Part shown: one piece after another, positions 1-10,400 of the stretch
Numbering within the stretch: the stretch's first letter is position 1
How the letters are laid out: the number at the start of each line of letters is the position of its first letter
NCBI GenBank assembly: GCA_965226885.1
Contig: CBDDEL010000010.1
Span: forward strand, 128,001-192,000
DNA: 64,000 bases
Direction of reading: 5' to 3'
Source: Opitutales bacterium
GTDB taxonomy: Bacteria > Verrucomicrobiota > Verrucomicrobiia > Opitutales > UBA2987
Position numbers and translations under genes: made by a program
The notes under the pieces: model-generated
Seen by the model: only the letters and a program-made list of their open reading frames with translations
What the model was told of the DNA's origin: nothing
Database searches by the model: none

Positions 1-1337
1 TTCTTCAATACCCCGATCCGCCCTTCGGTGCTGGCCCGGCGCTTTTGCAATTGTCTGAACAGTGGTTCCTCCATCCGGTTTTTCAACTGCTTCGGATCGC
101 GTGGACAGAGCGCGTCGTAGATTCCCTCCTGGGCTAACTGCCGGCGGGCCCGCTGGGAGGCAAATCCCCGGTCCGCGCACATGGCCGCTATGGGTTCTTC
201 CAGGTTGAAGCGGTTCTGTCTTTGCAAACTCTCTTGCATTTGTTCATTTTCGCTTGGAGTTCGGCTGCCGTAGAGTTTCCAGTCCAGCAGGTACCCTTCA
301 ACGCTTTCTCCCAAAAACAGGGTGTTGCCGAACTCGACCTCTTGGCCCGCTTTACCTCGCACAATCACCTGCCCATCGAGTTCGTAAACACTCAAGACTT
401 TCTCTGCGTTTTTCACCTGGCGGCCGCCAATGATCCGCTCGTGCGCCTGTTTGATGACCACCGGGATTTGCTCGCTCATGCGCTCCATCCGGGCGAGGAT
501 CTGTTGGACCTGTTTTTCGCTGTAATCGCTTTGCTCCCAGCAGGCTTGCAATAATTCCCGGTGACTGCGGGCATGCTCCCCGAGCCGTTTGAGCAGCTTT
601 TTCATCTGCCTCAAGATACCCTTGCGCTGCCGCGCGCTGTCCTTTCGCCGCCGGCTGTGGGTCATCTGTATGCACAGCCGATTCATCTGCCGAGCCAAGG
701 GCTCCGGTTCGATCGGCATGCGATGGCGCACACCGGCCTTCTCGCGGATCAGCCGGATCGCTTTGAGCAACGTGCCGGCTACATCCTTGAGTAATACCCA
801 GTCCGTCGGCCAATGAATGTTAGCCTCCAAACAGGTGCCGTCGATCAGGCAAATGGTGGTGTCAATCGGCTTGTCCAATCCCACCTGCCGGGCCAGAAGG
901 GCATCGCCCACCACCTCAGTCAAGGTCCGGTGCAAGGCCCTCAACTGCTCTTCGCTGAAAAACTTCGAGGCCCGCTCCAGGGTGCTTTTGGAGATGCCCC
1001 TGATGCCATCGATCTGCCGGACACGGCAAAAGTCGGCCAACAGATCGCTGCTGCCCAGAGCCCGCGACAAATGCCGAAACGAAATCCCTCCGAGCAGACG
1101 GCCCAGCGTATCCATGCGCAGTGCCTTGATGGCAAAACTGGCCCGCTGCCGCCGGGCCTTTAGACCCATTGGCGGCCACCCCTCCAAGGCCAGCTCAATG
1201 GCCTGCGATTCCACCTCCGAGTCGATCAGCAGCCGATCGATTCGATCAATGGTGGCGCGGAAGTTATCGTAATCGAGGCACCGGTCGACCACAGTTAAAG
1301 CTGGACGCAGGAGGCATTGGATGGCTATATTTTTCAT
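1..1337 (-). CDS. IS5/ISNCY-like DDE transposase (copy 1; 3' end runs off the window)
   Basis: Starts MKNIAIQCLLRP at 1337. Near-identical to copies at 52403-56391 and 56398-60164, which show motifs IDGTCLEANIHWPTD, ADRGF and RRASTEGRIG. Confidence 0.85.
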   Translation of the reverse strand, partial: MKNIAIQCLLRPALTVVDRCLDYDNFRATIDRIDRLLIDSEVESQAIELALEGWPPMGLKARRQRASFAIKALRMDTLGRLLGGISFRHLSRALGSSDLLADFCRVRQIDGIRGISKSTLERASKFFSEEQLRALHRTLTEVVGDALLARQVGLDKPIDTTICLIDGTCLEANIHWPTDWVLLKDVAGTLLKAIRLIREKAGVRHRMPIEPEPLARQMNRLCIQMTHSRRRKDSARQRKGILRQMKKLLKRLGEHARSHRELLQACWEQSDYSEKQVQQILARMERMSEQIPVVIKQAHERIIGGRQVKNAEKVLSVYELDGQVIVRGKAGQEVEFGNTLFLGESVEGYLLDWKLYGSRTPSENEQMQESLQRQNRFNLEEPIAAMCADRGFASQRARRQLAQEGIYDALCPRDPKQLKNRMEEPLFRQLQKRRASTEGRIGVLK

Positions 1338-1555
1338 AGAAAGGGCTATAGGCGGATCCTCCAGCAGTTGGTCTTCGAGCCCCTGCCGGAACTCTCCGTC
1401 CCAGGCATTTTCTCCGGGCAGGCACTTGATCCGCTCCACCAAAAACTCCCCGCCCTGCGCGCGAGATCAAGCATGAGTTCAGGCCCCACCTGACTCTTCA
1501 TCGCTCCGCGTCGAGTCCGTATGACGTTTCTCGTCTTCTATATTCGGTGTCACAA

Positions 1556-2075
1556 CTAACTGCGGCGTGATGCTTTAGATAACACAACAGAATTTTCGAT
1601 GGGTTTCGTTTCCCATGGCCCGTTTCTCGAACTGCCTTTCGACCCGCTCACTCCTCCTTCGTCGAGCCGCCCCGCCCAATACGAACCGTCCCGGACTGTC
1701 GCAAAGATAAACGGCCACCTGGGCCACCTGATGAGCACTCGTCCCCTGGCTACCAACAATAGGCCATGAAGGCGATGCTCGTAGGAAGATTGCTCGCTTC
1801 GACGGATTTCACCTTGCAAGACCAAGCTAGGGGCGCGCCACGGGCAGCCATCCCTGCACCGGCGTGCCCAACCGGATAGCGCCCCGCGTCTTCAGCGATG
1901 CGGCTTGCGATACGGTTGGCGGCGGCCTTGAGGGAACCGTAGGCGAGGTGGGTGTAGCGGCGGCGGTCTGCACCTTGTTGTGCCGGAGCAGGTTTCCAAT
2001 CATGGGCAGCGCCTCGCCGACCGGAAACCCGTTTCTGGCATAGCTATGTCCAAAAGGTCGTAAATGCGCTACCAA
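1556..2075 (-). pseudogene. Degraded fragments: IS630-like N-terminus and tyrosine integrase C-terminus
   Basis: EIRRSEQSSYEHRLHGLLLVARG (IS630-like) and GEALPMIGNLLRHNKVQT (integrase box II-like), both broken. Confidence 0.5.
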
Positions 2076-2163
2076 AGCTCACGAAAAGAGGCGTGCCGCG
2101 CTTGAAGTCGGGCATCACCCGGGGGGGTTGCCTTCCTAAAGTGCGCCGCGGCGCTGAAGCTCT

Positions 2164-4689
2164 TCAAAAACTGTAGCCGAGCTTTCCGTACCAGAAGGCG
2201 CCATCAAACCCAAAGGGGCAGAACTGGCCGTATTTGTTGCCAGTAGTCGCGGCGGACTTCGGATTTTCGTCAGGGTAATTGTTGAAGACGTTCTGAGCGC
2301 CCGCCGTTAAGGTGATTCGATCCGTAAGGGAGTAGTTGACTTCGAAATCAACGAGGAATTCGTCTCCGTAGGTTTGACTATCCTCGGAATCATGCCAGGA
2401 ACTATAGTAACGGCCGCGGCCCAGCAGATTCCAGCGATCCAGCATGGGCTGCGTCAGGGTTATGGTTGCCCGATGCCTGGGAAGACCCTCCTGTAATTCC
2501 CGGATGCGGACGTCGTTTATCGTCTCGGGGCTGAACTGGGTGACTTCCGTATTCGTGTAGTTATAACCGAGGCTCAGTTCACCCTCCCGCACTCCGGTCG
2601 ACAGAACGACGTCGATGCCGCGGGTTTCCGTGTCAAAGTCATTGATGAAAAAGACGTACTCCACCAGATTGTAGGCGTCGGTGATGCCCGTAGCGAACAA
2701 TTGATCGCGCTCTGCATCCGTAAACTCGAAGTCCTGTGAGAGCGACATGCGGTTCTTCACGTCGATGCCGAAATAATCGACCGTGATTACCGTATTGCCC
2801 ATATCGACAACGAAGCCGATACTGAAGTTGGTCGATTTTTCAGGCGTGAGCGCCTCGCCGCCCCTCCCCATCGCAACGGGATTGGTGGGAGGAATCACGG
2901 CCCTGGTGATTAGTTCCATTCGGTCCGCTTGAAATTCAGTGGTTACGTTGAAAGCGTTTTGCTGACCGGGAGTGGGGGCCCGGAAACCGGTGTTGAAGCT
3001 CCCGCGCACCTTCAGATTCTCGTTGATGCCGTAGGTGGTCGCCAGCTTATAGTTGATTGTGCCTCCGAAATCATTGAATTCTTCATAGCGCAAAGCGGCG
3101 GCAACCAACCAGTCGTCGGTCAGCTCGTATTCCGCGTCCACGTAGACGGCATAGTTGGAGCGGTCCCATATACCGGCGGCGCTATCACCGAAACCCGAGA
3201 AACCGTTGGAAGCACCCCTGAATCCCTGCTGATGCAGAGCCTGGCCGATCGCATATGACTCGGGTTGCCCCCTCACGATTTCAAACTCCTCGACACGGTA
3301 TTCGAAGCCACTGGCGAGGAACAACTGCTCGCTTAGCGGATAGGTCACGCCAAAGTTGAGGTTGATTTCGGTCTGAATATAATCACCGGGATCGAAATAA
3401 GTCGGAGTATCGGGGCCGAGAGAGGCGTTGACGGTATTAAAGATAAAGAAATCAGTGTGATGACGCCCGTAAGCAGCGCTGAAATCCAAGCCGAGTTTCG
3501 ATCCGGTTGTTCTCACCCCGGCGACAATGGATTGGTCCTTCGCGTACCCGCCAAAGCGGGGCGTGAAACCGCCGGGGAAGAGTTCCTGAAAGGTGAACAG
3601 ATTGGGATCGTCGAACACCTGTTGCAAAGCGACGGGGTCCGGCACATGGTTAGTTATCGTTACCACAGGGACCTTGGACTCATCGCCATCCAAAGCGCCC
3701 ACCAGCAACGTTTTTCCGGCGTCATTACTGAATACGCCGCGTCGCGTATTGGGATTGCGGTAATAGAACCCGCCCTCCACTTCCTTGCTCGCGTAGTTGG
3801 CATGACCGTAGAACTCGAGGTTCCCGCCTATGGCGGCGCCGTAATTGGCAAACAATTTGAGATCGTCCCGAACGAAGGGTTGACCCCAGATTTGAGCGGG
3901 ATTCGCCACCTCGCTGTTTCCCACCGCGATCAGAGCAGCGGCGTCATCTCGCTGCACGGAGCGGATGGTCTCGCCAGAGTTGCCGTACTCCCCGCTGAGA
4001 TTGATCCAGGCCTTTTCGCTGCCCAAGCCGATATTGCCGGCGATGGAAACTGCTTCGCCGCCACCGTCCTGGTAAATCCCCGTTCGAACGATGAGAGACC
4101 CTCCTTCGTAACTGTCGTTGAGCTCGAAGTTCAACACCCCCGCAATGGCATCGGAACCGTACTGCGCCGAAGCTCCGTCGCGCAGCACTTCAATCCGTTT
4201 CAGAGCGAGCGCGGGAATGGGGGCTACATCGGGCCCCTGTGCGCCATCGGCGACGCCGTTGCCCAACCAGTGAATCACGGACGCGCGGTGGCGGCGCTTG
4301 CCGTTGATGAGCACCAGCGTATGGTCCGGCGGCAGCCCGCGTATATTGAGCGGCCGAACGATCGTCGAGGAGTCGCTGATCGGCTGGGTATTGACGTTGT
4401 AAGAGGGGATGACGTTCCTCAATAGATCCTGTAAATCAGTGAAGCCTTGCATGGTGAGGGATTCGCCGGCGAATGTATCGACGGGCACCGCTGAATCAAC
4501 CACCGAACGCGGCTCCGCCCGCGAACCGATGATGACCAGTTCTTCGAGGACCTGCAGATTCTCGGAGTCGTCCCGGGGCTCGGACGGGGCTGGGGTCGAG
4601 TGAACGCTTTCGGGCTGCAGCACCTCCTGCGCGAAGGCATTTAAAGGAAGCAATGCAAGTATGGTAAGAGTAATTGTAGAAAGTCTCAT
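2164..4689 (-). CDS. TonB-dependent outer-membrane receptor, substrate unknown
   Basis: Signal peptide MRLSTITL..AFA, TonB-box-like ELVIIGSR, plug motif IRGL..TLVLINGKR, RIEVLRDGASAQYGSDAIAGV, and C-terminal Phe. Confidence 0.93.
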   Translation of the reverse strand: MRLSTITLTILALLPLNAFAQEVLQPESVHSTPAPSEPRDDSENLQVLEELVIIGSRAEPRSVVDSAVPVDTFAGESLTMQGFTDLQDLLRNVIPSYNVNTQPISDSSTIVRPLNIRGLPPDHTLVLINGKRRHRASVIHWLGNGVADGAQGPDVAPIPALALKRIEVLRDGASAQYGSDAIAGVLNFELNDSYEGGSLIVRTGIYQDGGGEAVSIAGNIGLGSEKAWINLSGEYGNSGETIRSVQRDDAAALIAVGNSEVANPAQIWGQPFVRDDLKLFANYGAAIGGNLEFYGHANYASKEVEGGFYYRNPNTRRGVFSNDAGKTLLVGALDGDESKVPVVTITNHVPDPVALQQVFDDPNLFTFQELFPGGFTPRFGGYAKDQSIVAGVRTTGSKLGLDFSAAYGRHHTDFFIFNTVNASLGPDTPTYFDPGDYIQTEINLNFGVTYPLSEQLFLASGFEYRVEEFEIVRGQPESYAIGQALHQQGFRGASNGFSGFGDSAAGIWDRSNYAVYVDAEYELTDDWLVAAALRYEEFNDFGGTINYKLATTYGINENLKVRGSFNTGFRAPTPGQQNAFNVTTEFQADRMELITRAVIPPTNPVAMGRGGEALTPEKSTNFSIGFVVDMGNTVITVDYFGIDVKNRMSLSQDFEFTDAERDQLFATGITDAYNLVEYVFFINDFDTETRGIDVVLSTGVREGELSLGYNYTNTEVTQFSPETINDVRIRELQEGLPRHRATITLTQPMLDRWNLLGRGRYYSSWHDSEDSQTYGDEFLVDFEVNYSLTDRITLTAGAQNVFNNYPDENPKSAATTGNKYGQFCPFGFDGAFWYGKLGYSF

Positions 4690-4770
4690 TGGTATCTGAA
4701 TATGACCATTACACCACTCAACCAACTCGAGGTCAAGTCCGGATTCTACTGCCAGGGTAGAAAGATTCTA

Positions 4771-5114
4771 GGTTCCTCGACGTTTTCAGTGGTACATTGC
4801 GGAGGGGATGTTGAGTTTACCGACGGCGAAGTGGAGCATGGTGATTAGCTTCTTTAGTGGTGTGATGGCCTCTGGCTTTGCGTTTGGTTGCGCTAAAGAC
4901 ACTGTTGAGTTCTTCAATGCAGGTATTGGTGAAGTGCGATTCCCAGTGGGCGAGGGTTTCCTCTTGGTGATTTTCGATTATGTTGGCCCATGGGTTTAAG
5001 GAAGCCTCGCCATGATGCTTACACATTGCGGTAATAACGTTCGAAATAGGTACTCAGGTTGCGTCTTCTCAGTAAAGGATATTGTGCCAGTACCACTGAA
5101 AACGTCGAGGAACC
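4771..5114. mobile_element. ISL3-derived MITE / internally deleted IS (344 bp)
   Basis: Perfect 25-bp terminal IRs GGTTCCTCGACGTTTTCAGTGGTAC and 8-bp TSD AGATTCTA. Internal remnant TN..EELNSVFSATKRKARG resembles an ISL3 transposase C-terminus. Confidence 0.85.
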
Positions 5115-5217
5115 AGATTCTAAGACGCAACTAGCTGATAAGCAGCTGATAAGCAAAAAGATAAAAAAAGAGCTAGACAATCCCGAATAAATCAGTCATG
5201 TTAAGATGGTATGAAAG

Positions 5218-6917
5218 CCGAGATTTCCCATATGAACATTCGTAATCGTTGAAAATAGCTACTTTCTAATATTTCGATCCAATTTTCTGCTTTCAATGTG
5301 ATTTTGCAATCCTTTCCTTGGTTATTTGATGATCAAATCGGCAGTATTTAACAATTATTGCTGATTTTCCCTTTGCTTGGTCAAATCAGGGAAAGATATT
5401 TCCTTCTGTTGGAGGTTTCCACAGCACTGATTCCCACAGCACTGATTCCTTTTGTATCGAAAAATCTTCTTACTCACCCCGTATCAGGTGCGAGTCGCAG
5501 TCGCTCTACTCGCTTGAGCATGGTTCGAAACATTTCTCTTGGGATGGCCACCTCAGCCATCTGGAAAGTGATATACTTGGCATGGTGGATCACCTTTGCT
5601 CCGATTTTGATGAGTTTCTCCCGCAAAGAGCTCAGCATCTAGTGCTTCACCTTGCCAGGAAGAATCAACCGGCGCATGAAGTTGCCCAGATTGTAGGCTA
5701 AGCCGAAGAGCTGAAGCCGAACGGCATTGTCCTCAAAGTCATGGCAGGACAAGCGGGTCCAGTGGATGGCATGTTTGCCCTCTTTGATCCACTGCTCTGC
5801 GGTGCCCCGGTGGTTGTAAAATTTCACTACCTTCCTGGGTGGCCAGTTCAGATTTGTCACGATGAAACCGACCCGCGCAAATAACTCTCCGGCCTGCCAC
5901 TCGACCTTGGCCACCACCCGGCGAGGTCTCTGCCAACTAGCGGCTTGATACGGAAAACTGGCATAAAACACCTTGGGTGCCCACGAGGGTCGCCCCACTG
6001 GCCGAGTGAGTAAAGGGGCGATATGTTTTTGTAAAATCGTGTTGCTCTGCAGCCGAATGGCATAGGAGAAGTTCTCTTGCTCAAGGTAACCGTAGAGGTC
6101 CGGATTGGCGAAGGCTGCGTCACCTCGGAAAAATCGTTTCAGGGGACAGTCACGATAGCGGGCAACGACCGGTTGGAGCACCGACAACCAATCGTCGGCA
6201 CTGTGCACATTGCCTTTACGCAGGTTGGCCCGTTCCAGATCACCAAACTGGTTGAAGCAGAACAGGGGATGGTAACAGGTGCAGCCGAAATGACCGTTGA
6301 AGGCTGAGCCTTCCTGCTTCCCGTAAGTAGGGCTCTCCGAACTATCCATATCGAGAATCAATTTTTTCATCCCCACTCGCCTATTCACCTGGTCGATCCA
6401 TTGACCACTCATGTCCATCAGTGCGCTCAGATTCGCAGGCTTGGTTAACATCTGTGTTTCAAAGCGGCTCATTTCACTGGGCGAAGCCGCCGGTTGCCAA
6501 TCGGCACGACCCCCGACAATCTGCCTCATGACCGGATCAAAGCGCAGGCGCTCCGCATCGTTCGTATCTTTGTATCCTGCCAGGCGACTAAAGACAGACT
6601 GCCGAAGCAGAGCCGTTCTGCCGTGCTGGATATTTTTGCCCGTGCGCTCCTCCACCACATTTTTGCTTCCTATTGCAGTCAGCCCGAAAGCCTCATCGAG
6701 TTCCCGGTAGAGTAACAATCCTGCATCACTGGTAACCTTCGCACCGTGGAACTCCAACTTGATTCGGCGGTTGAATTGAACCCGAAAACTGCTCTTTTTT
6801 GCGTCACCCATTGGATTTTAAGAATTTGCTCGTTATAAGTATATTTAAGTAACTTATTATTAAACACATAGCGCTTATTTCAAGCTAATTTTCTTATGAT
6901 GAAATGGGAAATATGGG
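5218..6917 (-). mobile_element. IS1380 family element type A, copy 1
   Basis: Ends CCGAGATTTCCCAT / ATGGGAAATATGGG, with transposase inside. Confidence 0.9.
5474..6811 (-). pseudogene. IS1380 transposase with a nonsense mutation
   Basis: Motifs TSDAGLL, LDMDSS, RGDAAF and YNHRGTAEQWIKE. TGG>TAG at about 5640 relative to copy 2. Confidence 0.88.
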
Positions 6918-7049
6918 CTATATTGATTTTCGCTAACTCAATTATAGAACCCTTTTTTGGCCGGATCGAGCAAAAACTTGCTCTTTCCGGCTCTTTTTAT
7001 CAACGTCATCCAGTTGACTATAAAATCTTTATATTTTTGGGACAGCCTC
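6918..7049 (-). mobile_element. Left end of IS5-like copy 1
   Basis: Matches 56260-56391 and ends TTTTGGGACAGCCTC. Confidence 0.88.
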
Positions 7050-7051
7050 TA

Positions 7052-7143
7052 GGTACAGATTGTTTTGCGTTCCGACTGCAAGACGTTAGGGAACCGGTTA
7101 AAATGGCACATAAGCAAAGACTGCTTACTATTCGAGTATTCAT
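7052..7143 (-). pseudogene. 5' end of first integron cassette gene (lipoprotein), interrupted by the IS5-like element
   Basis: Manual translation MNTRIVSSLCLCAILTGSLTSCSRNAKQSVP with lipobox-like LTSC and upstream AGGTGG. Confidence 0.6.
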
Positions 7144-7164
7144 AATGTTCCACCTGTTGTTATT

Positions 7165-7200
7165 TTCATCTAACTATATGTAGGCGGCAAATACGCCGCG
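7165..7200 (-). promoter_or_regulatory. Putative attI site
   Basis: GTTAGAT (GTTRRRY core) at 7174-7168 on the minus strand, upstream of and divergent from intI and just before the cassette ORF. Confidence 0.55.
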
Positions 7201-7410
7201 ACAATTATGTACATTATCCTTTCGGCCAATTTATTCAATAATATTCGTAAATCTATGATAAACAACAGGATCACAAGGTTATGCCTGAAAAGGAGCAAAA
7301 TGATATGCGTCATTTCTGCCGCCTAATTGAAAACAATTACGCCGCCTATTAAATAAATTAATTAAATGCGTTGACGCATCATTTTATATATATACATTTG
7401 TTCACTTATT

Positions 7411-10400
7411 ATGCAATTTACTTCTCCAAAATTGAAATTTCTCGACCTTCTACGACATGAGATTCGCGGCCGGCACTACAGCTACAGAACCGAGCAAGCC
7501 TATGTTTACTGGACCAAAAGGTATATCCTGCACCATCACAAAAGACATCCTAAGGATATGGTGGCCAAAGAGATAAAGGAATTCCTAGCTTATTTAAGCG
7601 TCAATAAGCATGTTTCGGCAAGCACACAAAACCAGGCTTTCAGCGCCCTAATTTTCCTCTACCGGGAATTCCTTAAGGTCGATCCGGAGCGAATTGAAGG
7701 GGTGATACGTTCAAAAAGACCAAAGCGAATACCTACAGTATTGTCACGCGAAGAGGTTCAAGCGATTTTCAGCAGTATGGAAGGAGTTCCACAGTTGATT
7801 GCCAAATTGTTGTATGGTAGCGGATTGCGTCTGAGGGAGGCTCTCTGTTTAAGAATTAAAGATGTCGACTGGCACCTGAATCAAATCACCATAATCGACG
7901 GCAAAGTGTAAACGCCGGGATGAAACCGGTACGGGGGTCGGGGTAAAACCGGTACGCTTGGAATAAGGTTTAGGTTAGTAATTGCAGGTACGTCAAGGTT
8001 TAGGGTTTGGGAGTTGGTTTTGGGGATTGGCTTGGGGTCGGTGAGGAGGCCGGAGGCCGACGAGCCGGGCCCAAGGCGTTTATTGTTTTGTGCCACGGCG
8101 ACGGCGTCGAGCATCGCGCAAGCGGTAGCTTTGCCCGTTGGCTTCGAGGATATGCACCCGATGGGTGAGTCGGTCCAGCAGAGCTCCGGTGAGCCGTTCG
8201 GAACCGAGCACTTCGATCCAGTTCTCAAAGGGCAGGTTGGTGGTGACGATGAGACTGGTGCGCTCGTAAGCGCGGCTGACCACGTCGAAGAGCAGTTCGG
8301 AACCGGTCTTGGAAAAAGGGACGTAACCGAGTTCGTCGAGGATGAGTAGGTCGAGCCTTTCGAGTTGCTTCATGAAGCGCTGCAGGTCGTGGTTGTCGCG
8401 TTGCTCGAGCATATGGGTAACCAGGGCGGTGACCCCGAAGAAACGGATCCGCCGGCCCTGGGCACAGGCGGCAAAGCCCAGGGCGGTGGCCAGGTGCGTT
8501 TTACCGGTACCGGCGTTACCGAGGAGCAGCACGTTTTCGCGCTGGTCGACATACTCCCCGCGCATGAGCTCTCGGATGAGCGCTTCGTTGATCGAGGGCT
8601 GCGCTTCAAAGGCGAAGCTCTCGAGGGTCTTGAGCACGGGGAAACGGGCGTTTTTGATCCGCCGCTGGGCGGCCCGCTGTTCGCGTTCAATGAGCTCCCG
8701 TTCGACCAGATGCAACAAAAAGGCGGCGTAATCGAGCCGGTCCCGGGAACAAGCCGCGGCCACCGCCGGCCATTCGCGCAGGATGGTGGGCAACTTCAGT
8801 TTCTTGAGGTGATGGTGTAACAGCAGCTGGTTTTTTTCTTCCTTCATAAAGCCCCTCCTGGAATCTTGAGCAGTTCGCTGTAGGCACCGAGGTCAGGGGC
8901 GGCCACACGGACGTGACGCAGGTGTGGATGGCCGTCCAGCCGGAAGGTTCTGCTCCCGTAGTCTTCCTGAGGATAGAGATACTGGGCGATGGCCTCACGA
9001 GTCAGTCCCCCCCCACCCGCAGGGCCGAGACGACGGCCTGCTGCAAGGCCGCCATGGGGTGTTTCTCCAACAGCCGCAGCACCCGGATATACTCCCGGGT
9101 GCCTTCGCCCCCGCATTGGCTTTCGAGCCGGCGTCTGAGGACCTGCAGGCACTGCGGCAACTGCCAGCCCGAGAGTGGGCGGGCGAAGTCCAAAGCGCCC
9201 GGTTTTTTCTCCAGCAAAGCCAGGTAGTGCACCGGCTCGAAAGAGACTTGCTCTTTATCCCAAATGCGGCGGTGCCGGGCCACCTCTTGGCCCCCACAGA
9301 AGATCACCACCTGCCGACAGGACCCTTCCACCACCACCGGATGGTGGGCGCAGCGCACCGGCACCGAATAGTCGTTGCACTCGAAGCGCACCAGCGAGAG
9401 GCTGCTGACGCAGGTCGAGCGTTTGCGGCTCGCTTCAAAGGGTATGGGCGGCAACGCCAGCATGACGGCGCGCTCCTCGGCCAGCAGTTCCTTTTTCACC
9501 GCCCTTTTCCCGCGTAATTTACGCTCCATGTCCCGCTCACATGCCTCCAACAGCTTTGCGTTGAGTTCCTCCAGGTCCCGAACCTGCGGTACCGGTACCA
9601 GGAAGTTGGCCCGGGCATAACGCACGATCCCCTCGACCACGCCCTTCTCGTTGGGCCGGGCGGGCAGACAGAAGTGTTCCTCGAACAGGTAATGGCTCTG
9701 TAGCTGCAGAAACCCGTCGGTCAGCTTGCGTTCACGCGAACCGATAATCTTACCCACCGCCACCTTCGAGTTGTCATAGCTGATGCGCCGGGGCACCGCC
9801 CCGAAAAACTCAAAAGCTCGCAGGGGCCCCTCCCAGAAGCTCTCCGTGCACTCCCGTTCGAACACCTGCACGAAAAAGGCATCGCTGTAGGGCAGGCTCA
9901 TGGCAAAAAATGGCCGCCTACGCAATTGCCCCGCCTCCTTCACCAGGGCATGACCGAAGTCCACCTGTCCCTCCCCGGGGCGGTGCTCCAGCGGCACGAA
10001 CACTTCCCGCCGCCTCGCTCGCAGCTCGGCCACCACCTCCTTGACCGCCGTGTAGCCCCCTTGGTAGCCCTTCTCCCGACCCAAACGCTGGTAGATCCGT
10101 TTGGCCGTATGGCGCTGCTTCTTGGGCACGTTCCGGTCCGCTTTGAGCACCTCCTCGATCCAGCCCACATACGGATCGATCTTGCGCTCTCGCCTCTTCT
10201 TGCGCCGGTCTCCCGGCGGCTGGGAATAGGCCAGCATCTTTCCCAGGGTCTCCCAGTGCAGTCCCTCTTCTCGCATTACAGAGCGCTTGCTCTGCTTGTC
10301 CCGCAGCACTTTGTGCCGCACTCTTGTCCATTGCTTCATATCTCGATACACTCCTCCTTTCTAGGATAAGCGTACCGGTTTTAAAGCGCCCTCTTTACCG

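Follow-up and report, generated by a model that had tools for sequence, protein, structure and literature searches.

The 64,000-nucleotide (nt) stretch analysed here, called the window below, comes from an uncultured Opitutales bacterium (assembly GCA_965226885.1, contig CBDDEL010000010.1, positions 128,001 to 192,000 of the forward strand). At positions 1351-6917 it carries a transposable module consisting of a single insertion sequence (IS) of the IS1380 family and a stretch of adjoining DNA that includes an intact gene for a TonB-dependent receptor. The module is of the ISEcp1/ISPme1 type and represents a known mechanism, not a new one. Judging from the sequence, it is very probable that one transposition event produced it, using the true left inverted repeat (IRL) of the IS together with a surrogate cut inside a decarboxylase gene, beyond the true right inverted repeat (IRR).

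A first-pass annotation of this DNA had delimited the block, and direct reading of positions 1-8400 bore out all of its coordinates to the base. The block measures 5,567 bp, of which 3,867 bp (1351-5217) are cargo and 1,700 bp (5218-6917) are the IS1380-family element, and the pentamer CTATA is indeed present on either side of this combination of one IS1380 and 3.87 kb past its IRR. The string proposed as the empty site was found exactly twice in the window (56255 and 60022) and in none of 100 shuffles. In the whole genome, a 45-nt empty site comprising 25 nt of left flank and 20 nt of right flank with a single CTATA had 111 exact matches, whereas occupied junctions numbered three on the left and four on the right. 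The 25-nt left flank occurred 137 times and led into the empty site in 127 cases, into the cargo in three, and into small variants in the remaining seven; the left junction itself is an unbroken match to the empty site through CTATA. The presence of 111 sites with a single CTATA, compared with three and four occupied junctions, indicates a genuine duplication around the whole block and not a chance match of five bases: CTATA is the true target-site duplication of the whole block. At the inner boundary, GAAAG (5213-5217) adjoins the true IRR and differs from CTATA, as had been pointed out, and in all four copies of the unit in this genome the IRR flank reads ...ATGGTATGAAAG, never CTATA.

The block interrupts a host IS of approximately 1.82 kb that is present in 104 full-length copies in the genome and whose ends are GAGGCTGTCCC.../...GGGACAGCCTC. 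Its transposase gene has its start codon at 1337-1335 on the minus strand, and the insertion point lies 13 nt upstream of this ATG. The description of an IS5-like element split between its start codon and its left end was therefore correct with respect to the split. The IS5 label needs qualifying, because the ISNCY model (NF033593, E=3.7e-52) scored higher than the IS5 model (NF033578, E=2.6e-26), both being under their cut-offs; the match to PF01609 was weak. Insertions of the host IS generate duplications of 6-7 bp with the form TA..TA. An exact 6-bp repeat at a fixed offset was detected in 35 of the 104 full-length copies, and many of the remaining copies have, as judged by eye, a 7-bp duplication. 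The coordinates of all parts are given in Table 1.

Table 1: Positions of the module, its components, and the interrupted host IS in the window.
Feature	Position	Strand	Remarks
Host IS (IS5/ISNCY-like), transposase-bearing part	1-1350	-	transposase open reading frame (ORF) 3-1337, runs off the window
Left target-site duplication, CTATA	1346-1350		direct reading; genome-wide junction counts
Pyridoxal phosphate (PLP)-dependent decarboxylase, 5' fragment, pseudogene	1351-1536	-	frameshifted; about 24 nt shorter than native; cut at 1351
IS630-family remnant	1537-1826	-	internally deleted and truncated; left terminus intact, aligns from 1537
Non-coding remnant	1827-2163		also in genome G032, homology from 1818
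TonB-dependent receptor, intact	2164-4725	-	ORF from TTG at 4725; 853 aa; plug and barrel
ISL3-derived miniature element, 344 bp	4771-5114		25-bp terminal inverted repeats; target-site duplication 4763-4770 and 5115-5122
ISAs1-like element, 5' end	5115-5217	+	first 7 nt of transposase gene, ATGAAAG, at 5211-5217
IS1380-family element	5218-6917	-	IRR 5218-5231 (inside the module); IRL 6904-6917 (terminal)
Promoter-like match (TTGAAA, 17 nt, AATATT)	5268-5296	-	in the IRR end, faces outward to the receptor gene; consensus only
IS1380 transposase frame	6811-5474	-	in-frame TAG at 5641-5639, codon 391 of 445
Right target-site duplication, CTATA	6918-6922		direct reading; genome-wide junction counts
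Host IS, remainder up to its terminal inverted repeat	6918-7051 (134 bp)	-	comparison of genome copies

Elements of the IS1380 family are about 1.5-2 kb long, have terminal inverted repeats that begin with CC, and duplicate 4-5 bp upon simple insertion. The segment at 5218-6917 fits this family in its length and in its inverted repeats (IRR, CCGAGATTTCCCAT; IRL, CCCATATTTCCCAT), which are alike at 12 of 14 positions. Its transposase, read on the minus strand as an ORF of 390 aa before the stop (6811-5642), exceeded the cut-offs of both family profiles, with 334.9 bits for NF033539 (cut-off 180) and 385 bits for PF13701 (cut-off 34.7). Both ends of the element are common to many copies in the genome: 49 IRR-type ends have their first base at the equivalent of 5218, and 16 IRL-type ends have their last base at the equivalent of 6917. 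The IRL of ISEcp1, as quoted in a passage of PMC6061673, resembles both the IRL and the IRR of this element. The arrangement of the block is that of a one-ended unit, with one IS copy, a terminal IRL, and cargo lying past the IRR, on the 3' side of the transposase gene; the receptor ORF is located downstream of the IS1380 transposase gene and has the same direction.

The origin of the cargo could be followed from both of its ends. On the side of the IRR, a genome from the same order and a different family (G032) was colinear with window positions 1818-5217, with identities of 95.6% over 3,012 bp (1818-4795) and 90% at 5090-5217. The miniature element occupies the same site in G032 (L088:13276-13619) at 99.7% identity, its interior being inverted between the 25-bp repeats. 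The G032 locus contains no IS1380, and homology to the window ends exactly at 5217, the IRR boundary. Past this point, G032 has an ISAs1-like ORF of 453 aa with DruA-N, DDE_Tnp_1_assoc, and DDE_Tnp_1 domains, and the last 7 nt of the cargo are the first 7 nt of this transposase gene. The colinearity up to the IRR indicates that the IS1380 element sits after the seventh base of an ISAs1-like gene and that the cargo is DNA that formerly lay 3' of the IS. The receptor locus of G032 (L088, G032:C1:303000-322000) is bordered by a gene for a 499-aa DDE transposase on one side and by the ISAs1-like element on the other.

On the opposite side, contigs from two other studies (X22 and X1) shared the same continuation to the left of 1351, which is not host IS and reads in frame as decarboxylase. 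The X22 contig is 1,539 nt long and extends to position 2232, and X1 covers the cargo, with no depth over 5180-7300. Protein P0001, which is 92% identical to the fragment, continues past the cut at 1351 in frame like X22 and X1. Because the decarboxylase continues past 1351 elsewhere, this position falls within a longer native sequence instead of marking the end of an element. The first-pass annotation had allowed for 1351 being the end of a different element; the comparison placed it inside the decarboxylase gene, and the proposal stands in this respect. The assignment of the fragment was based on the translation of 1353-1466 (minus strand), which was 83-97% identical to residues 51-86 of 513-aa PF00282 proteins; relative to the window, contigs from X21 and X22 have 24 extra letters at 1483-1493. 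The decarboxylases returned by a search with P0001 were all more distant, with at most 79% identity over the N-terminal part; many further matches were to the unrelated repeat at its C-terminus. The IS630 terminus is translated at the N-termini of P0001 and P0004, indicating that the junction between IS630 and the decarboxylase is older than the capture.

The sequence is consistent with the following course of events. At the donor locus, a copy of IS1380 would have lain within the start of an ISAs1-like transposase gene, followed beyond its IRR by the ISL3-derived miniature element, the receptor gene, the non-coding remnant, the IS630 remnant, and the PLP-dependent decarboxylase gene. The transposase would have taken the true IRL, skipped the true IRR, and cut within the decarboxylase gene, 3,867 bp beyond the IRR, and the 5,567-bp piece would then have inserted into a copy of the high-copy IS5/ISNCY-like element with a 5-bp, AT-rich duplication of CTATA. 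The IS1380 transposase presumably did the cutting, and the capture may have been replicative or conservative. The transposase would later have gained its premature stop, and the module would have been carried along and amplified with the host IS, whether IS copies recombined with each other, the loaded IS was mobilised in trans, or the two processes combined.

A number of observations weigh against this course of events. Over 14 nt the distal end agreed with the IRR at 6 positions and over 20 nt at 7; as 15% (14 nt) and 29% (20 nt) of the cargo positions scored equally well or better, the weak resemblance to the IR that had been claimed for this end is at the level of chance. A better IR-like site at 2789 (11 of 14 positions) was left unused. 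Published surrogate ends are also weak, such as IRR1 of ISEcp1 in a passage of PMC6061673. The unit has a single endpoint: the three left and four right junctions are identical, and no variable endpoints were found. The change of TGG to TAG at codon 391 is present in all four copies of the unit, so the unit no longer encodes a complete transposase; TGG stands at this codon in seven further genomic copies, every one of them interrupted or truncated, and in G032 all three full-length copies encode 445 aa. In addition, no direct repeat at both ends was detected among the other IS1380 copies of this genome with both ends identified or among the full-length copies (n=4) that G032 and G004 contain, all with reassorted flanks; the 5-bp length could thus be read from the unit but from no simple insertion of the element. 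No donor junction, in which the remainder of the ISAs1-like gene would follow IRL, was found among the 12 distinct IRL flanks of the genome or in 40 relatives. Finally, no contig from public runs over the stretch bridged 1350/1351 among the matches listed. An exact 24-mer from 1351 onward had no match in genome contigs or metagenome contigs of public collections, and a 27-mer across the left junction had none in public genome contigs, where the window's own genome may be excluded.

Three other origins of the block were considered. The IS1380 element could have inserted alone at CTATA, with the 3.87 kb joined to it later by recombination and a second join. The flanks of IS copies have clearly been reassorted by recombination in this genome and in G032, and direct repeats at both ends are missing from the other IS1380 copies with both ends identified, which would suit such a history. 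Recombination within the IS, however, swaps the flank of the IRR and cannot recreate a host IS that ends in CTATA at the far end of the cargo, where the left junction perfectly continues the empty site through CTATA. Furthermore, an occupant made of IS1380 only was absent among the 137 left-flank occurrences, and we give this two-step origin a slim chance. A similarly slim chance is given to a composite, two-ended transposon, in which 1351 would be the decayed end of a second IS1380 copy or of some other element. Spare ends are plentiful in this genome, as 34 of the 48 scored IRR ends are solo ends and a second IS1380 element has more than 200 copies. At the distal boundary, however, no second IS copy or end was found; by BLAST, the cargo, including its first 190 bp, had no genome copy outside the copies of the unit. 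Moreover, 1351-1536 is decarboxylase coding sequence that is uninterrupted in other samples and in P0001, and the chance-level likeness of the 1351 end to an inverted repeat speaks against a decayed terminus.

The third alternative is that the junctions are chimeras assembled in a repeat-rich genome. The repeats are extreme, the outer flanks of the copies are reassorted, and one copy lies at a contig end; the number of copies may in part be due to strain variants or to alternative paths through the assembly. A chimeric join, however, would not double precisely the 5 bp that 111 sister copies of the site contain only once. The same junctions are present on three contigs, including C9 with its sequence-distinct copy, and 61-80% of the words sampled from 1000-7200 were recovered in runs from three other studies. 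Because of the exact duplication of a single site and the recurrence on three contigs, misassembly is very unlikely and is in our estimate the least probable of these alternatives. Capture by the IS1380 element in one transposition event is the explanation that we retain.

The receptor is encoded by an uninterrupted gene. Its product has the two domains that define such receptors, an N-terminal plug (PF07715, 68.5 bits) and a 22-strand barrel (PF00593, 122.2 bits), both over the cut-off, and translation likely begins at an ATG at 4689, as judged by eye from the signal-peptide-like start. The gene is 100% identical in three copies of the unit (C9, C10, and C11), with a single stop at its end. 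Matches to NCBIfam equivalogs (siderophore, heme, and B12 models) were weak and all far under the cut-offs, so that no substrate could be assigned. The receptor may be expressed, and its transcription might start from an outward-facing promoter within the IRR end, where a promoter-like match faces the gene. Three promoter-like sites were found compared with 2.1 expected in shuffles, which is not significant by itself.

The receptor gene is patchily distributed. A DNA search did not find it in four genomes of the same genus (81-93% complete), whereas it was found at 96% identity in G032, from another family, and at 91% in G008. One Opitutales metagenome-assembled genome (MAG) carries the gene with 90% nucleotide identity and unrelated flanks, and protein relatives of about 59% identity are present in MAGs labelled Poribacteria, Latescibacterota, and Gemmatimonadota. 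The G+C content of the cargo (55.6%) is higher than that of the genome (52.2%), and the cargo was found by BLAST nowhere else in the genome outside the copies of the unit. The simplest reading of these data is that the receptor was acquired via the module; loss of the gene in the same-genus relatives, instead of acquisition, could also have produced the distribution. The earlier suggestion that the same mechanism is importing a nutrient-uptake gene is supported by the one-ended anatomy and the intact receptor. It is not supported as regards ongoing import, since the sequence records one past event and the transposase contains a stop.

Single-IS1380 gene capture is best known from the spread of beta-lactamases, and few natural examples unrelated to resistance exist because the far end of such a unit is normally unrecognisable in a genome sequence. 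In the present case, the genome of a relative and contigs from other samples show the captured DNA before capture. The window thereby places the mechanism in an uncultured, sponge-associated lineage of Verrucomicrobiota (the stretch is present in runs labelled sponge metagenome), where it moved a receptor that is patchily distributed among relatives. It provides a useful worked example for spotting modules in metagenome-assembled genomes.

Four copies of the unit were found in the genome: the one in the window (C10), a 100% identical one (C11), one at C9 with identities of 99.7% (cargo) and 98.3% (IS) and with insertions of 30 bp and 1.1 kb, and a partial one at the end of contig C16. All four have identical junctions with the host IS. 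Copies with different 5-bp flanks, which the first-pass annotation had proposed to look for, were thus not found in the genome. The identical junctions indicate that the copies descend from one insertion and that the module was not multiplied by its own transposition. The loaded host IS has reassorted outer flanks (A-D, A-B, C-D, and ?-D). Only the C9 copy, which is nested in a copy of the second IS1380-family element, has matching outer duplications (TAACTA on both sides); its left flank recurs in C10 and its right flank in C11 and C16. Recombination between IS copies, alternative assembly paths, or strain variants fit these flanks better than transposition of the loaded IS does.

A broader scheme would combine two tiers of hitch-hiking. 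The loaded host IS, about 7.4 kb long, would be multiplied by the machinery of the host IS acting in trans or by recombination between IS copies, and this subgroup of IS1380 would habitually skip its IRR, as suggested by the choice of a distal end unlike an IR and by the sister copies (those with both ends identified) without flanking repeats in this genome, G032, and G004. We regard this scheme as rather unlikely. If true, it would mean that nested IS elements amplify genes, so that a symbiont whose IS elements are expanding has obtained three or more identical copies of the receptor gene, and that most "insertions" of this IS1380 subgroup are really modules.

Several features of the IS1380 copies and of the other repeats were recorded separately. 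IRR ends of this IS1380 type outnumber IRL ends across the genome (n=49 vs. n=16). In 34 of the 48 IRR ends scored, colinearity with the IS extends for 140 bp or less; approximately 15 stop at 92-105 bp, and 14 of these IRR ends then run into single-copy DNA. The conserved piece of about 100 bp holds the outward promoter-like match. No further modules were found through the empty sites of other IS1380 copies, the flanks being single-copy; for a miniature IS1380 copy on C17, one IS-free copy of its flank exists. In G032, three intact IS1380 copies lie in repeated segments of 3-6 kb with reassorted flanks at the starts of C1 and C2 (L180-L182). The IS load of the window's own genome is extreme, with more than 100 full-length copies of the host IS, other high-copy repeats, and frequent nesting. 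A second IS1380-family transposase, 32% identical, gave more than 200 tblastn matches in the genome.

The remaining parts of the cargo are largely debris of mobile elements. The IS630 remnant is 77% identical to a 1.15-kb element that is present in at least 12 copies in G008 and encodes a helix-turn-helix (HTH) domain and DDE_3. The segment at 1827-2163 had no Pfam match even at E<=10; by eye, it may resemble the frameshifted C-terminus of a tyrosine recombinase, a motif-based likeness that no profile supported. The miniature element is flanked by an 8-bp duplication (AGATTCTA), and its internal ORF of 69 aa matches the C-terminus of an ISL3 transposase. Its word depth ranged from 330 to 10,000 in four runs, far over that of the adjacent cargo, indicating that the 344-bp element is abundant in those communities. 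Within the receptor gene, word depth at 4110-4326 reached 8,680 in run X22 compared with approximately 10-25 nearby, and three runs had loose ends on both sides, at 4280 and 4326. It seems that a nearly identical segment of about 46 nt is also present in other organisms of higher abundance.

Relatives of the PLP-dependent decarboxylase with 65-79% identity were found in MAGs of many phyla, including Binatia, Latescibacterota, and Nitrospirales. P0001 is a chimera in which a decarboxylase N-terminus is fused to an unrelated repeat; this C-terminal repeat occurs abundantly in a 'Candidatus Moanabacter' MAG. A 38-aa search for the decarboxylase fragment in the 40 relatives gave one weak match, which was discarded as it lay mid-way in an unrelated ORF of 415 aa. 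The receptor and the decarboxylase were adjacent in none of 79 receptor-centred loci and in none of 80 decarboxylase-centred loci, implying that their juxtaposition is peculiar to the donor lineage. Next to the host IS, the segment 7052-7911 contains a tyrosine recombinase gene that begins at 7411 and matches the SAM-like N-terminal domain PF13495 and the start of PF00589. By eye it looks like an integron-type integrase; near 7907 the gene is interrupted by an element of 2.5 kb with two genes. This element (ORFs 8080-8847 and 9002-10351), which is repeated in the genome, may be IS21-like.

Among known systems, the units formed by ISEcp1 are the closest in anatomy. Passages of PMC6061673 describe an IRL of CCTAGATTCTACGT, a poorly matching surrogate IRR1, and the repeats ACTCA, TAATA, and TAAGA. 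As described in parts of PMC6061673 and PMC9330008, units carrying blaCTX-M, blaCMY-2, qnrB, or rmtC share with the present module a single IS, a terminal IRL, cargo past the IRR that is co-directional with the transposase, 5-bp AT-rich repeats, a poor surrogate right end, and inverted repeats starting with CC.AGATT. In contrast to those units, the present one carries a nutrient-uptake receptor and mobile-element debris in place of a resistance gene, resides in an uncultured Opitutales bacterium associated with sponges, has a transposase pseudogene, and shows a single endpoint, known from sequence alone.

Cases unrelated to resistance also offer parallels. Bartosik et al. are said to have described transposable modules of Paracoccus in 2008, and the title of a 2009 paper by Szuplewska and Bartosik refers to a mosaic with an IS of the ISAs1 family, which the ISAs1-like donor context found here parallels. 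The dhlB gene with IS1247, listed as a reference-list entry, is reportedly a further single-IS capture. The ISPme1 and IS1247a modules of Paracoccus, treated in parts of PMC3281130 and PMC9330008, resemble the present module in having one IS1380-family copy with arbitrary genomic DNA at its 3' side, an environmental host, and no link to resistance. The geometry described there, with a terminal IRL, an internal IRR, and a 5-bp AT-rich repeat around the unit, also agrees with that of the present module. According to a passage of PMC3281130, such modules can be delimited in silico only when they have landed in a conserved context; here the multicopy host IS is that context, and both ends of the module could therefore be defined to the base. 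As described in the same passages, the Paracoccus modules were caught on trap plasmids and had several endpoints, whereas the module reported here was deduced from sequence and has one endpoint. In Sphingobium herbicidovorans MH, an IS1380 element is associated with yfcG-gstB-rutE in several identical copies (part of PMC5737581). Those copies are described there as separate chromosomal insertions, whereas the copies of the present unit share one junction and were multiplied with the host IS. The first-pass annotation had called the mechanism mostly documented for resistance genes; the published Paracoccus and Sphingobium cases qualify that statement.

The module resembles IS91 and ISCR elements, as characterised in portions of PMC5737581 and PMC9330008, in that a single element, acting from one end, moves neighbouring DNA whose length varies. 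It is unlike them in having a DDE transposase, inverted repeats, and a 5-bp duplication, as IS91/ISCR elements have HUH/tyrosine-type transposases and no direct repeats. It also differs from a composite transposon, since no second IS1380 copy bounds the cargo. The host IS, for its part, is comparable to a passenger-carrying IS, as it holds the whole module between its own inverted repeats; with regard to this analogy, only the C9 copy of the loaded host IS has matching outer duplications. Among the literature matches listed, none dealt with IS1380 together with a receptor of the TonB-dependent type, although this negative is weak. In comparison with the systems described above, the present module adds a new host lineage, a new cargo, and, owing to its multicopy target, boundaries that could be drawn in silico with unusual clarity.

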